From Escherichia phage vB_EcoM_Lutter, in the sequence record NC_054924.1: DNA of 64,000 nucleotides; one strand, 5' to 3'. The notes below the pieces were generated by a model. That model was not told the origin of the DNA, made no database searches, and was given only the letters and a program-made list of their open reading frames with translations. Each line of letters opens with the position of its first letter. Positions within the stretch are counted from its first letter, which is position 1. Below, in pieces: positions 501-43,095 of the stretch. Position numbers and translations under genes: made by a program.

Positions 501-2183
501 TTAAACCATTACAGTAAATCGACCAACTTTCTTCATTTGAAGATGCTGACCATATTCTTGCGGGTCATGGTCTTTATGCGAAATTATAAAAACATTAGTG
601 TTTTTCATTGAATTTATAATATTAGCTACACCTTTAATACCTTCGGCATCAAATGACCCATCAAACACTTCATCGAGTATTAATGTACTAATACTAACAC
701 CAGATACAATAGAAGCAATATCACGCCAAGTAAATAAAAGAGCAATATCAATTCTTGCTTTTTCACCTTCACTAAATGAAGCATAACTAAAATCTTCGCG
801 ACCACGGGATTTAATTGTCTCATTAAATTCTTCATCTAATGTAAACACATAATCCGCTTCCATTATTTTAAGATAATGGTTAATCTGCTTATTAAATAAT
901 GGAATGTACTTTTTAATAATAGCACCTTTAATACCAGAATCTTTGAGCATATCAGTCAAAATTCCTCGGTGGTATTTTTCCATTACTAAATTAGTTTTTG
1001 TCTTAACAATTTTATCAAGTTCTTCTTGAAGCAGTGCTATTTCATCAGCATGGTCAATAAACTCAGAAGATGCTTTTTCTATAGCCGCTTTAACTTTTTT
1101 AGCTTTATCTACTGCTGCGATCAGAGATTGCTTTTTATTGCGAATATCATTTGCCAACGACTGCTGAGTTTTAATATTATCTCGGTATTCATCAACAAGA
1201 ACTTTTAAATTATCACGATGTGTTGAAAGCTGTTCAAACGAATGCGTGCATTCAGAAACTTTATCTTTAATTTTAGAAACAACTTTATCACCGGAACTCA
1301 ATTGTGACAAACAGGTTGGACATAATCCACCTTCGTGATACATATTAATGACTTTATTATATGAGTCAATTTTTGATTTAATTAAAACTGCTTCTTGACC
1401 GATTTTATTAAATGCATCAGTCGGGTCTTCATCTAAAACAATATTAACTAATCTTTCATTAGCTTCTTCTATTTCCGATTTTAGCGTTCTAGCTTCTTTT
1501 GCCAAATCATCATACATATTTTGCAGACGAATAAGGTTTTCACCAGTTAATTTTTTCTGGCGTTCAACGTTATCATTATATATTTTAATTTGTTGGATAA
1601 TACTATCTTTTTTAACATCAAGCACTTGGTTTTGTGAATTTAATTCACGTATTAGTGCTTTATTAAGCTTATCCATTTCAGCTAATGTTCCTACCTCGAG
1701 CAGGTCTTCCACAAGCTTTCTTCGCGCAGGGGTCGACAAACCCATGAAAGGGGTATACCCTGCTGTACCAAGGACAACAATCTGCTTGAAACTGGCATAT
1801 GACATTCCGATAAGCTGTTCAAATTCTGCTTGGAAATCTTTACTGCTGGCAGATTCATTAAGACGTGTACCGTTAACGGTGATTTCGAAAACGTTCGGTT
1901 TTTGTCCTCTTTTGATATAGTACTTTTTCTCATCATATTCCATCCACAGTTCAACTAAAAGTTCTTTCTTATTTGTGCTGTTTATTAATTGACCTTTCTT
2001 TACATCACGAAATGGCTTGCCAAAAAGCCCAAATGTGATGGCTTCTAGCATAGTAGACTTACCACCGCCATTTCGTCCAGTAATAAGAGTTTTTTGAACC
2101 TTATCTAATTGAATGTCAACTCCATTTTGACCAACTGACATTATATTTTTATATTTTACTCTATTAAGTTTAAATGATTTCAT
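501..2183 (-). CDS. 46: recombination endonuclease subunit gp46 (Rad50/SbcC-like ATPase)
   Basis: 560 aa; Walker A GRNGGGKST, long coiled coil with CPTC zinc hook, C-terminal LILDEVFDGSFD; same length as T4 gp46. Confidence 0.92.
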   Translation of the reverse strand: MKSFKLNRVKYKNIMSVGQNGVDIQLDKVQKTLITGRNGGGKSTMLEAITFGLFGKPFRDVKKGQLINSTNKKELLVELWMEYDEKKYYIKRGQKPNVFEITVNGTRLNESASSKDFQAEFEQLIGMSYASFKQIVVLGTAGYTPFMGLSTPARRKLVEDLLEVGTLAEMDKLNKALIRELNSQNQVLDVKKDSIIQQIKIYNDNVERQKKLTGENLIRLQNMYDDLAKEARTLKSEIEEANERLVNIVLDEDPTDAFNKIGQEAVLIKSKIDSYNKVINMYHEGGLCPTCLSQLSSGDKVVSKIKDKVSECTHSFEQLSTHRDNLKVLVDEYRDNIKTQQSLANDIRNKKQSLIAAVDKAKKVKAAIEKASSEFIDHADEIALLQEELDKIVKTKTNLVMEKYHRGILTDMLKDSGIKGAIIKKYIPLFNKQINHYLKIMEADYVFTLDEEFNETIKSRGREDFSYASFSEGEKARIDIALLFTWRDIASIVSGVSISTLILDEVFDGSFDAEGIKGVANIINSMKNTNVFIISHKDHDPQEYGQHLQMKKVGRFTVMV

Positions 2184-20467: not shown

Positions 20468-20995
20468 TTATGCGAGTACCGTCTTTAACCGTTCTTCAAA
20501 CTTCCGAAGAGTATTCTGGCGTTCAGCTCTTTGCTTTTTGTAAGTTTCAATACGCTCTGAAATGAGAGTGTATCGTTCATTTACTGATTCTTTCATAAAA
20601 TCAGGAATTTCACGAGAAGATTTAATCTCGTCAAATTTATCAATAACAGCTTGCTCTTCAGCAATTAAGTTATCATACATCAAAATATCTTTCTTGATGA
20701 ACTCAATATCTTCTTGAGTTACACGAGATAATTTAGATGCTTTATCCTTTTTGTACTGTTCATTAGTATCACGAGACCAGTGTAATGTACGATTTTTATT
20801 CGTATTTTTGTAAATTTCTACAATACCGATCTCATCAATAATAACGATCCAATTCCAACGAGATTTGTAAATTTGCCCTCCATCAACCGTGATTTCACCT
20901 CCGATTGAGATGTCATTAAAGAACTTGCTTTGTGCTTCAGATTTAAATTTACCATCATTGTAGTTTACCAAGTTGAAAATATCTTTAGCATTCAT
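20468..20995 (-). CDS. hypothetical protein; start trimmed to MNAKDIF
   Basis: Track ORF reads through the promoter motif; GGAGG ribosome-binding site before ATG at 20995. Confidence 0.5.
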   Translation of the reverse strand: MNAKDIFNLVNYNDGKFKSEAQSKFFNDISIGGEITVDGGQIYKSRWNWIVIIDEIGIVEIYKNTNKNRTLHWSRDTNEQYKKDKASKLSRVTQEDIEFIKKDILMYDNLIAEEQAVIDKFDEIKSSREIPDFMKESVNERYTLISERIETYKKQRAERQNTLRKFEERLKTVLA

Positions 20996-21023
20996 TTTCT
21001 GTTCCTCCGTAGTTGATAGTTGT

Positions 21024-21052
21024 ATAGTACCACAGAGGAACGGTCTTGTAAA
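21024..21052 (-). promoter_or_regulatory. early promoter
   Basis: TTTACA-17-TGG-TACTAT, then conserved ACAACTATCAAC. Confidence 0.6.
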
Positions 21053-21055
21053 CAA

Positions 21056-25101: not shown

Positions 25102-25236
25102 AATTACATACTCCTTTGAATAATATCAATAATGTTGTTCACCAAATTATAAGTAAACATTGGGTAATTATATTGAATCATCACATACACAACAAACAAA
25201 ACTTTCATTCTCTTCTCCTTGGCAGTTGACAAGATT

Positions 25237-25265
25237 ACTATACCATAACCTTGCCAACTTGTAAA
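25237..25265 (-). promoter_or_regulatory. early promoter
   Basis: TTTACA-17-TGG-TATAGT. Confidence 0.5.
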
Positions 25266-25431
25266 CCATTAAATGACGTTTTCAATAAAATTCTGAAGCT
25301 TTGTGTGAGCATCAACCATGATTTTCATTTCTTCCTTTGCGAAAGCTGTACCTCTTTCCCGAGCAGAATACTCATAGTCAGAAACTGCATTAGCATATTC
25401 TTCAATTAGCTTCATTAAAAACATCTGCTTT

Positions 25432-25847: not shown

Positions 25848-25999
25848 GCCATGTGAGTTGCAACTTCATCACACATATTATAACGTTTCTTAAGAAGTTC
25901 TACAAGTTCTTCACTAGTAACTTCATCCATGTCGACGAAAAAATCACCATTAATGATGACGTAGATATTTCCTTCTTGATTGAGTGCTTCAATTTTCAT
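25811..25999 (-). CDS. hypothetical protein; start trimmed to MKIEALNQ
   Basis: Track ORF extended through promoter motif. Confidence 0.45.
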
Positions 26000-26027
26000 G
26001 ATGTTCTCCTCTTTATCCGATAGTTGT

Positions 26028-26056
26028 ATAGTACCACAGCTCAAACGGAAAGTAAA
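26028..26056 (-). promoter_or_regulatory. early promoter
   Basis: TTTACT-17-TGG-TACTAT; follows hairpin 26074-26089. Confidence 0.6.
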
Positions 26057-26073
26057 CCGGTAAAATGAAAAAA

Positions 26074-29753: not shown

Positions 29754-30215
29754 TCATTGAGTTTTAATTACTGCTTTAGAAGCCTTTCCTGGTAAACGAC
29801 GACTGTTGATAATTGCCATCCTGCATTGAAGTGACGGGTTTTTGAACTTCTCATTAGGCTTACAAACTGTAAATCCAAGCCAAAGATTTCCATCTGTGAT
29901 TTCTAAACGTCCAGGACGATATTCAACCCCATCAATAAAATCCTCATCAATGTCAGGACGCGGAGGCATACTCAGGAATTCATTAACTTCTAAAACATGG
30001 TCTTTTATTTTATGGAATAATTCAAAAACATATGTCTCATCAATCTCCCGTTGAATTGCACGATCAAGAAGATGCTGAGAATATTTTAGATGAAACGATG
30101 AGACCCCTGCTGCTTTTGATGCCTCACGAATCTCATTGTTAATTTGACGAAACTCCGACTCAAAGTGACGACGAAGCTTATTTCGACGGATAAAAACTTC
30201 TGTATTGATAGTCAT
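29754..30215 (-). CDS. regB: site-specific endoribonuclease RegB
   Basis: 153 aa; MTINTEVFIRRNKLRR...; size and position of T4 RegB. Confidence 0.7.
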   Translation of the reverse strand: MTINTEVFIRRNKLRRHFESEFRQINNEIREASKAAGVSSFHLKYSQHLLDRAIQREIDETYVFELFHKIKDHVLEVNEFLSMPPRPDIDEDFIDGVEYRPGRLEITDGNLWLGFTVCKPNEKFKNPSLQCRMAIINSRRLPGKASKAVIKTQ

Positions 30216-30242
30216 GTTATTCTCCTCTTAACTGATAGAAAA

Positions 30243-30271
30243 ATTATACCACAGTCAAGAGGAAAAGTAAA
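30243..30271 (-). promoter_or_regulatory. early promoter upstream of regB
   Basis: TTTACT-17-TGG-TATAAT. Confidence 0.65.
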
Positions 30272-30274
30272 CAG

Positions 30275-33086: not shown

Positions 33087-33348
33087 TTAAGCTTCACCGC
33101 CAGAAATAATTCCGAAGTTGTTAAAATCGTATCCAATATCGTCAACATCTACTTTAGGACTTGTAGCAACATAAGCAATTTCACTGCGTTTTGCATAGGT
33201 GTTGATTTCTTTACCATCACCACCTAAGAAAAAAATACCCATTACGTTTTAATGAGCCAAAATCTTCGGCATCACCAACGAAAGCTTTAACTTTAAATTT
33301 GGGGCCTTTGGCATCTGCTTCAGCGATAAATTCTTGATACATTTTCAT
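33087..33348 (-). pseudogene. frameshifted internal-protein gene
   Basis: MKMYQEFIAEADAKGPKF... halts after an A7/T7 run at 33229-33235; one fewer base gives an ~86-aa ORF to the TAA at 33087. Confidence 0.5.
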
Positions 33349-33354
33349 TTTTCC

Positions 33355-33768
33355 TTAGTAAATTGATTTACCATAGTATTTGTACCAAGTCGGACGTTGA
33401 GCAATTTTTTCATCTAAGCGTGCTTGACTTATCGCAATGGACGCTTCGGACGGGACATAATTATTACGAAATTCGGCAGGGATGTCGGAAATATCCTGGA
33501 CTGTCGTGTCCTTGATTTTGAAACCACGTTTCAAGCATTCGGCGATTAGCTCGATTTGTCGTAAACGTAAAAATTCAAGTTTGTCGTAAAAGAATGTTAC
33601 GTGACCTGTGCCTAAGATAAATGTTGGAGAGATTTTAAAATCCTTTACACGTTTACCGTTTTGAACATGTTTACGGACTGCACCAAATACGCGTGGTAAT
33701 TCACGATACTCAGCCATAAGATGTTGGTCGGTCAGTTCAGAAACAAGTGTTAAATTGATACGAGTCAT
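33355..33768 (-). CDS. denV: endonuclease V (pyrimidine dimer DNA glycosylase)
   Basis: 137 aa from [12 protein letters not shown]...; T4 DenV size. Confidence 0.88.
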
Positions 33769-33795
33769 AATTTCCTCCAAGTAGTTGATGAATGT

Positions 33796-33824
33796 ATAGT
33801 ATCAAAACCCTTGGAGGAAGTAAA
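33796..33824 (-). promoter_or_regulatory. early promoter upstream of denV
   Basis: TTTACT-17-TACTAT; spacer holds the arm complementary to the denV ribosome-binding site. Confidence 0.6.
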
Positions 33825-33827
33825 CAA

Positions 33828-35068
<1,241 letters not shown>

Positions 35069-38112: not shown

Positions 38113-38183
38113 CATTTATTTCTCCGTTTCTGTATTTGTTTTGATAAGTCTATAATAACACCGTCCTTGGTGTTTGTACACAA

Positions 38184-38459
38184 TTATTTCATATTATTGA
38201 AATATTCTTCTGCGATTTCGTCGTTATCATGGTAAACTTTAGAAGACAGTTTAACATAACCTTCTGCCGTGAACATATTAATCACAACCTTTACAGTATA
38301 CCACTGACCATCTTCATTACCCATTACTGCGTAAGTTTCAAACATCGGATGATCAGGACCGATAACTTTAATATCATTCACTGTACGACCAAAATCTTCT
38401 GAAACACATTTCATAAAGAAGTTGAACAGTTCGCCGTAATTATCCATTTTATTCTCCAA
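38184..38459 (-). CDS. hypothetical protein (91 aa)
   Basis: ORF downstream of early promoter 38491-38519. Confidence 0.5.
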   Translation of the reverse strand: MENKMDNYGELFNFFMKCVSEDFGRTVNDIKVIGPDHPMFETYAVMGNEDGQWYTVKVVINMFTAEGYVKLSSKVYHDNDEIAEEYFNNMK

Positions 38460-38490
38460 GTTGTTTTCTGTATCAGTAGTTGATAGTTGT

Positions 38491-38519
38491 ATAGTACCAT
38501 GGAAGAACAGGGATGTAAA
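38491..38519 (-). promoter_or_regulatory. early promoter
   Basis: TTTACA-17-TGG-TACTAT. Confidence 0.6.
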
Positions 38520-38551
38520 CAGTTTTGTGAAAAAATTTTTTAAAAAGTTTT

Positions 38552-42709: not shown

Positions 42710-42737
42710 TTTATTCTCCTCAGTAGTTGATAGGGTA

Positions 42738-42766
42738 ATAGTATCACAACTAAAACCCTATGTAAA
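42738..42766 (-). promoter_or_regulatory. early promoter
   Basis: TTTACA-17-TACTAT flanked by inverted repeat ATAGGGT/ACCCTAT. Confidence 0.6.
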
Positions 42767-42779
42767 CAACTTTGTGAAA

Positions 42780-43037: not shown

Positions 43038-43066
43038 TTTATTTTCCTAATTAATTTTGATGAGGT

Positions 43067-43095
43067 AATAGTATCACTACCTCATCAGCGTGTAA
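43067..43095 (-). promoter_or_regulatory. early promoter upstream of ipI-like gene
   Basis: TTTACA-17-TACTAT flanked by inverted repeat GATGAGGTA/TACCTCATC. Confidence 0.6.

Follow-up and report, generated by a model that had tools for sequence, protein, structure and literature searches.

We asked whether denV, the endonuclease V gene of T4-like phages, can be translated from every transcript that crosses it or only from transcripts that begin at its own early promoter. The question is raised by an inverted repeat in the denV leader of Escherichia phage vB_EcoM_Lutter (Tequatrovirus), from which we analyzed a stretch of 64,000 nucleotides (NC_054924.1), referred to here as the window. The nearest relatives of the window are the phages vB_Eco_BGP and PTE-Eco15, and its denV region is ∼77% identical to that of T4. 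On the minus strand the genes follow each other in the order nudE, e (lysozyme), a 93-amino-acid internal head protein gene, denV, and further internal-protein-like open reading frames (ORFs) (Table 1). Close relatives carry the annotation endonuclease V for denV, and the terminus of the encoded protein matches that of T4 DenV. The original prediction, made from the letters alone, was that the Shine-Dalgarno (SD) sequence of denV is complementary to a segment between the −35 and −10 elements of the promoter in front of it, so that transcripts from this promoter would leave the SD free while read-through transcripts would fold it into a hairpin.

Table 1. Positions of the features discussed in the text (window coordinates; for the jumbo-phage loci, positions in the locus).
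Feature	Position	Strand	Evidence or remark
Lysozyme gene e	34106..34594	−	Pfam Phage_lysozyme
Internal head protein gene, 93 aa, MKTYSEF leader	33828..34109	−	phrog_3499, E = 1.2e-46
denV (endonuclease V, pyrimidine-dimer glycosylase)	33355..33768	−	ATG 33768; Pfam PF03013 Pyr_excise, E = 3.3e-14
−35 hexamer GTTTAC, denV early promoter (T4 type)	33820..33825	−	Sequence
5′ arm (anti-SD) UUCCUCCAAG, in promoter spacer	33810..33819	−	Inverted repeat, 10/10 complementary
Extended −10: TG (33804-33803), A, TACTAT (33801-33796)	33796..33804	−	Sequence and promoter scan
Predicted transcription start, centered on A33789, ∼7 nt past −10	33787..33791	−	Sigma-70 geometry
3′ arm CUUGGAGGAA with denV SD GGAGG (33778-33774)	33772..33781	−	Inverted repeat
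regB leader	30213-30272	−	ATG 30215; same design as denV
175-aa nrdC.8-like gene	20993-21053	−	ATG 20995; phrog_2274, unknown function, nrdC.7-nrdC.9 block (relatives' annotation)
Further early-promoter cassettes	43058-43087, 42716-42767, 38445-38520, 25997-26057, 38113-38181	−	Covariance model
Jumbo-phage denV loci L024, L026, L030, L032	∼1430-1475		GC-rich hairpin, UUCG-type loop, T-run over −35

Along the minus strand, two T's separate the TAG stop codon of the internal protein gene from the −35 hexamer. The promoter can be written GTTTAC-N18-TACTAT with a TG in front of the −10, as an early promoter of the sigma-70 type, or TTTACT-N17-TACTAT, in which form it fits the early-promoter consensus of PST and T4, TTTACW-N17-TAYWAT (PMC4122927). 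Its 18-nt spacer reads TTCCTCCAAGGGTTTTGA, and the first ten bases, which start immediately after the −35 hexamer and precede both the TG and TACTAT, are complementary to the segment that bears the SD. Downstream of TACTAT come 14 nt, then CTTGGAGGAA (33781-33772), ATT, and the ATG, which places the GGAGG 5 nt before the start codon. The repeat foreseen by the original prediction is thus exact in sequence, coordinates, and strand, with ten of ten positions complementary across a 28-nt loop that contains the extended −10. Given that the 5′ arm lies between −35 and −10, transcripts of that promoter cannot contain it. Sigma-70 geometry is the established basis for predicting the start site, and it yields a proximal leader of ∼21 nt without the 5′ arm; the arm is likewise absent from RNAs with 5′ ends anywhere from 33787 to 33795.

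With 0.17 matches to GTTTAC-N17/18-TAnnnT...GGAG expected, the window has 10, and every one is on the minus strand. A generic sigma-70 scan left the denV promoter of the window unlisted at a score of 8/12 and listed its T4 homologue, with the TG. The late-promoter motif TATAAATA was not found within the denV leader. The T4 GenBank records carry no promoter features at the denV locus, and our literature search returned neither a genome-wide T4 start-site data set nor a 5′-end mapping or translation measurement for T4 denV.

To assess how much of this could arise by chance, we counted perfect inverted repeats of at least 10 bp with loops of 3 to 40 nt, using dinucleotide shuffles as a control. 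The window contains 10 such repeats, compared with 4.7 ± 1.9 (maximum, 11) in the shuffles, so the denV repeat taken alone is only weakly significant. What lies above chance is its coverage of the SD, its site in the promoter spacer, its rank in SD masking, and the conservation of compensatory pairing in other phages. For the ranking, we computed the energy needed to open the SD in the context from −90 to +30 for 92 crudely called genes in the window. The denV SD, at 12.9 kcal/mol against a median of 2.2, ranks third of 92. Rank 2 is held by lysozyme gene e (13.3 kcal/mol), the classic case, in which the hairpin has been established by experiment. Its leader shows the arrangement known from T4 and was our internal positive control; the e leader (34598-34640, minus strand) has two TATAAATA late promoters (34628-34621 and 34615-34608) and a masked SD. 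An Rfam scan of 33300-34800 gave two chance-level matches (E = 0.66 and 0.86), far below gathering scores.

The predicted folds of the two kinds of denV RNA differ as anticipated. The read-through leader folds at −21.8 kcal/mol (z = −4.2), a value that none of 200 shuffles equaled, whereas an RNA that starts after the −10 is essentially unstructured (−2.1 kcal/mol; z = +0.9). The stem over GGAGG is perfect, 10 bp long, and stable locally: its pair probabilities in read-through RNA are 0.81 to 1.00, with nine of the ten pairs at 0.98 or above in contexts of 130 to 895 nt, and in none of these contexts was the SD unpaired. Opening the SD costs 12.9 kcal/mol in the read-through RNA versus 2.3 in the proximal one, whose predicted start discards the 5′ strand of the helix. 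Some pairing persists in the proximal transcript, where the first two SD guanines have probabilities of 0.05 to 0.36 of being unpaired because of a weak partner in the coding sequence, but even so the cost of opening remains just ∼2 kcal/mol.

In order to learn whether this arrangement is conserved, we gathered denV loci from IMG/VR, metagenomes, and annotated phage genomes, among which were 41 distinct denV leaders of T4-like phages from several genera. All 41 mask the SD. The median opening energy is 10.8 kcal/mol (range, 7.0 to 16.9) in read-through RNA and 2.1 kcal/mol (range, 0.6 to 3.7) in RNA from the predicted start, and in 40 of the 41 leaders the partners of the SD lie at or upstream of the predicted +1. 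The sequence of the 5′ arm is specific to the lineage (UUCCUCCAAG in the window, UCUCCUGUAG in T4, and CUCCGUUUG or UCUCCUGUG elsewhere). T4 denV has the same architecture with a different pair of arms, UCUCCUGUAG and CUACAGGAGA, complementary at 10 of 10 positions; the arm pairs of further lineages are CUCCGUUUG/CAAACGGAG, UCUCCUGUG/CACAGGAGA, and UUUCUCCUAG/CUUGGAGGGA. Around an invariant CUCC/GGAG core, five adjacent helix positions each occur as three standard pair types.

We quantified this covariation on an alignment of the arm segments only, anchored on the CUCC/GGAG cores and kept in register. In this alignment 81.9% of cells pair (68.0 ± 2.3 in shuffles), 45 cells are compensatory in that both sides have changed (22.1 ± 3.3 in shuffles), and the covariation score is 0.439 (0.186 in shuffles), each of these values being reached in 0 of 500 shuffles. 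Compensatory changes fall on 7 of the 12 helix positions, and sliding the partner columns as a control lowered pairing to 41 to 52%. An alignment-free test pointed in the same direction: when the SD region of each lineage was combined with its own promoter region or with those of others, the observed helix length of own over chimeric pairs was reached in 0 of 20,000 permutations. A MAFFT alignment of the class A leaders and an Infernal realignment were also tried and discarded, since both keep a one-column register shift between subfamilies (pairing in 64% of cells at slide 0, rising to 68% at slide −1) that makes their covariation count uninformative; the anchored alignment and the own-versus-chimera permutations were used instead.

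The 5′ arm occupies one of two places. In 27 of the 41 leaders it sits in the promoter spacer, as in the window. In the remaining 14 it runs from inside the −10 hexamer to 6 to 9 nt past it, and the 3′ arm reaches through the SD-AUG spacer to the AUG (for example, TATGATGTCTTCC with GGAGGACATCATG). Both layouts are predicted to keep the 5′ arm at or upstream of the sigma-70 start in 40 of 41 leaders; in the second, a start at +6 would leave 1 to 3 arm nucleotides in the RNA. Some denV homologues additionally have an inner stem that encloses the −10 alone. The two layouts are interleaved along the divergence of the DenV protein, indicating that the cassette was exchanged repeatedly while SD masking was kept. 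Such repeated exchange is hard to explain unless selection maintains both the masking and the exclusion of the arm from the proximal transcript.

From the anatomy, predicted folds, conservation, covariation, and gene context of the locus we infer a start site, a read-through RNA, and a translational effect, and we consider it probable that the denV leader works as a translation switch set by the start point of the transcript. The early promoter carries a 10-nt anti-SD in its spacer, a segment that should be missing from its own transcripts. RNA from this promoter would begin ∼21 nt before the AUG, lack the anti-SD, and present an open SD, such that DenV could be made in the first minutes of infection. 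RNA arriving from upstream, either by early read-through or as late RNA from the lysozyme and internal-protein genes, would hold both arms, fold the local hairpin that hides the SD, and carry denV untranslated. DenV synthesis would in this way follow the activity of the gene's own early promoter and be shielded from the genes of late function upstream. Counting against the switch, it is not obvious what selective advantage silencing denV on long RNAs would bring.

The genes around denV bear on how much read-through RNA there may be. In every lineage, the gene directly upstream is either e or an internal head protein gene with an MKTY.EF leader, and this neighbor varies between e and one of several internal-protein genes. 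A terminator scan of the minus strand from e to denV found no terminator-like site in the window or in T4. According to the entries for these genes in the supplement of a time-resolved omics study (PMC9697503), T4 e, ipIII, and ipII belong to the class with early RNA and late protein, while denV and regB are early as both RNA and protein. Together with the missing terminator, these expression classes make read-through from e and the internal protein gene into denV plausible. Within the T4 block e-ipIII-ipII-denV, which is early as RNA, DenV alone is thus early as protein, which fits a rule by which denV is translated from its own promoter only; the switch, if real, would help explain this difference. 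Two further observations concern the gene layout. In the window, the stop codon of e overlaps the start codon of the internal head protein gene (ATGA, 34106-34109), and the two make up a single translational unit that no promoter cassette interrupts; at this place T4 carries a cassette and ipIII. Just downstream of denV (33087-33348, minus strand), a 43-amino-acid ORF with the internal-protein leader MKMYQEFIAEA meets an overlapping 51-amino-acid ORF in another frame near a T run (∼33235-33245), and the pair may be an internal-protein gene split by a frameshift.

denV loci with other surroundings provide natural controls. The SD is free, with opening energies of 1.4 to 4.1 kcal/mol, at denV loci that either have a terminator-like hairpin over the promoter or lack a codirectional upstream gene. 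One group of environmental loci has a divergent upstream ORF and a free SD. At cyanophage-type loci there is no promoter, and the denV start codon overlaps the upstream gene. The jumbo-phage loci have a near-consensus TTGAC-N-TATAAT promoter overlapped by a hairpin (Table 1) and a free SD (1.4 to 3.5 kcal/mol). By inspection this hairpin looks like a combined terminator and promoter, although the scan tool made no call. The jumbo-phage and T4-like denV hairpins are alike in overlapping the promoter, and the former would insulate denV from upstream transcription; they differ in that the jumbo-phage element has a short GC-rich stem, a tetraloop, a T-run, and a free SD, whereas the T4-like leaders have no T-run and a masked SD.

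Switches of a related kind are known from T4. In transcripts of e, soc, 49, and I-TevI that start far upstream, the SD, the AUG, or both are held in a local helix, while a promoter located inside the region of the 5′ strand produces transcripts that lack this strand and are translated; the promoter is a late one in every listed case, and denV is not among the cases in this 2010 review (PMC3014915). The likeness drawn by the original prediction to the logic of e and soc proved apt, an early promoter taking the place of the late one: as in these four genes, the denV SD would be hidden in the long RNA and an internal promoter would supply the translatable RNA. denV differs from them in that its promoter is of the early sigma-70 type (GTTTAC...TACTAT) rather than the late TATAAATA type and in that the 5′ arm is inside the promoter spacer itself. 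An internal late (or middle) promoter, typical of the e/soc type, is absent at denV, which makes denV a variant rather than a plain member of this type. The predicted timing is also reversed, since the e/soc type is switched on late, whereas denV would be on early and silent on later or longer RNAs.

The cassette itself resembles the promoter-early stem-loop (PeSL) cassettes described for T4-type phages by Arbiol et al. in 2010 and Comeau et al. in 2014 (PMC2839356, PMC4122927). PeSL stem-loops lie between −35 and −10 or over the −10 and have been read as attenuators and recombination sites; neither paper mentions SD pairing or translation (PMC2839356, PMC4122927), and in the drawings of the 2010 paper, in which the words "ribosome" and "translation" do not occur, the SD is a separate 3′ element (PMC2839356). 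At denV, too, a stop codon is followed by a consensus early promoter, an SD, and an ATG, in a locus of shuffled internal-protein genes, and related cassettes recur, as shown by the matches of a covariance model of the denV leader and by the varying upstream neighbor. In addition, the T4 e-ipIII cassette is homologous to the e-denV cassette of RB68-type phages. As to the stem-loop, those of PeSL cassettes are described as self-contained; at denV the 5′ arm is between −35 and −10 and the 3′ arm is 28 nt downstream, at the SD, so that the loop holds the −10 and the start site. The 3′ arm at denV is the SD itself, there is no U-tract, and the arms covary with the SD flanks. The in silico evidence supports viewing denV as a putative switch of the lysozyme type with reversed temporal polarity, set in a PeSL-type early-promoter cassette. 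An abstract by Valerie et al. from 1986 (Nucleic Acids Res 14:8637) reportedly mentions possible stem-loops before ipIII, ipII, denV, and orf61.9. If the T4 denV stem-loop was seen then, it was, to our knowledge, without the present interpretation.

The PeSL literature suggests another explanation, namely that the denV stem is a transcription attenuator or terminator that stops or reduces polymerase coming from e and the internal-protein gene and that its overlap with the SD is incidental. The composite PeSL layout of the leader agrees with this, as does the fact that the covariance model also matches other promoter cassettes in the window and in T4; moreover, one RB49 PeSL stem-loop cut lacZ expression about as much as a strong terminator did (PMC2839356). 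By sequence criteria, though, the denV stem does not look like a terminator. None of the 41 leaders has a T-run after the stem (at most 4 T in the 10 nt past the SD), the loop spans 23 to 30 nt, and, as described above, the terminator scan was empty on the minus strand of both the window and T4. An attenuator would have no need of the SD, yet all 41 leaders use the SD region as the 3′ arm, which in the second layout extends to the AUG, and ordinary PeSL stems that enclose the −10 alone and leave the SD free do occur nearby (43058-43087). We regard attenuation as unlikely. A role in nuclease protection appears quite unlikely as well. Here the hairpin would hide an intergenic GGAG from RegB, or act as a 3′ stabilizer of the lysozyme and internal-protein mRNA, with silencing as a side effect. 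In favor of this, GGAG sites in early intergenic regions are cleaved by RegB, an enzyme that secondary structure inhibits (PMC3014915, PMC1702504) and that the window encodes, and the regB leader has the same design. However, the resistance of the T4 denV GGAG to RegB was traced to the bases that lie 3′ of this motif, and an A-rich graft at this place made the site cleavable in vivo (PMC1702504), which implies that the SD is accessible in most early denV RNA and would agree with a proximal transcript that predominates early. Late transcripts are all resistant to RegB already, as are most middle ones (PMC3014915), and a 3′ stabilizer would not need an SD.

Translational coupling, in which ribosomes finishing the internal-protein gene would melt the stem and hand over to denV, is suggested by the spacer layout, where the upstream stop codon is just 8 to 12 nt before the 5′ arm. 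Judged by standard geometry, a ribosome positioned on this stop codon should reach the first 1 or 2 nucleotides of the arm at most, and in the second layout the arm is ∼30 nt further downstream with masking kept. Entries in the omics supplement mentioned above (PMC9697503) also class T4 DenV as an early protein and the products of the upstream genes as late proteins, and we find coupling very unlikely. That the repeat is due to chance, or is a functionless relic of cassette recombination, is hardly credible and was already disfavored, even though chance alone should yield ∼5 such repeats in 64 kb and the locus is known as a hot spot where promoter cassettes and internal-protein genes recombine (PMC4122927). 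Masking has been kept in all 41 leaders, across several genera and in two geometries, with compensatory changes at 7 of 12 positions, a covariation level found in none of 500 shuffles, and own-pair helices equaled in none of 20,000 permutations. That the SD is used invariably, that a U-tract is absent, and that the arm has two placements fit attenuation, nuclease shielding, or coupling less well than a start-site-dependent switch.

The start-site-dependent switch may extend beyond denV. Strong masking of the SD from the promoter spacer was found for 3 of the 16 early promoter-gene pairs in the window, namely, denV, regB, and an nrdC.8-like gene. Since 13 of the 16 early promoters leave the SD open, masking is gene specific rather than a generic by-product of the cassette; the broader idea that all early-promoter cassettes carry anti-SDs was ruled out on the same count. 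In regB, the spacer segment that follows GTTTAC, UUUUCCUCUU (30266-30257), pairs with the SD-bearing AAGAGGAGAA (30229-30220), and opening the SD takes 11.1 kcal/mol in the read-through RNA versus 1.7 in the proximal one. The T4 regB leader is identical to that of the window, and the 2010 review describes a typical early promoter and self-cleavage of the SD for regB and nothing more (PMC3014915). The nrdC.8-like gene has the strongest SD masking in the window (13.5 kcal/mol), its GUUCCUC in the spacer of GTTTAC-N18-TACTAT pairing with GGAGGAAC.

A tentative generalization, which we hold to be possible rather than probable, is that some T-even early-promoter cassettes are translational insulators. 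By virtue of an anti-SD in the nontranscribed part of the promoter, denV, regB, and the nrdC.8-like gene would be translatable solely from their own immediate-early promoters, and their synthesis would be confined to the first minutes despite continued transcription from upstream. T4 is the reference system for temporal gene control, and the known hairpin switches of e, soc, 49, and I-TevI all silence late or selfish genes on early RNA. A switch of opposite polarity, if confirmed, would mean that RNA structure blocks early enzymes, including a DNA-repair glycosylase (DenV) and an mRNA-cutting nuclease (RegB), on the long middle and late RNAs that run through their genes, as an early-gene mirror image of lysozyme control. 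It would also give some PeSL stem-loops, so far seen as terminators or recombination sites, a translational function unrelated to termination. For phage engineering, payloads placed behind such cassettes, or behind relocated ones, would then be translated from the cassette's own promoter alone.

In the window, the covariance model of the denV leader matches the regB leader and sites at 20993, 25997, 38113, 38445, 42707, and 43035; it also matches the T4 e/ipIII cassette. Several of the further cassettes (Table 1) have the motif TGTGGTACTATACAACTATCAACTAC after the −10 in common. At 43058-43087, the stem formed by TGATGAGGTA and TACCTCATCA encloses the −10 alone, and those further cassettes whose stems do the same look like ordinary PeSL stem-loops. 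In another early-promoter leader (25215-25266, minus strand), UUGGCA in the spacer pairs with UGCCAA directly upstream of GGAG; this stem abuts the SD without covering it and may represent an intermediate form. Finally, in the T4 ipII cassette (locus L001, 2230-2300, minus strand), UCCUAGAAUUGUGA and UCACAAUUCUAGGA form a perfect stem of 14 bp, whose loop contains the −10 and whose 3′ arm ends in UAGGA, ∼40 nt ahead of the real ipII SD. The UAGGA looks like a decayed SD, and the cassette may be a denV-type relic left behind by insertion of an internal-protein gene.
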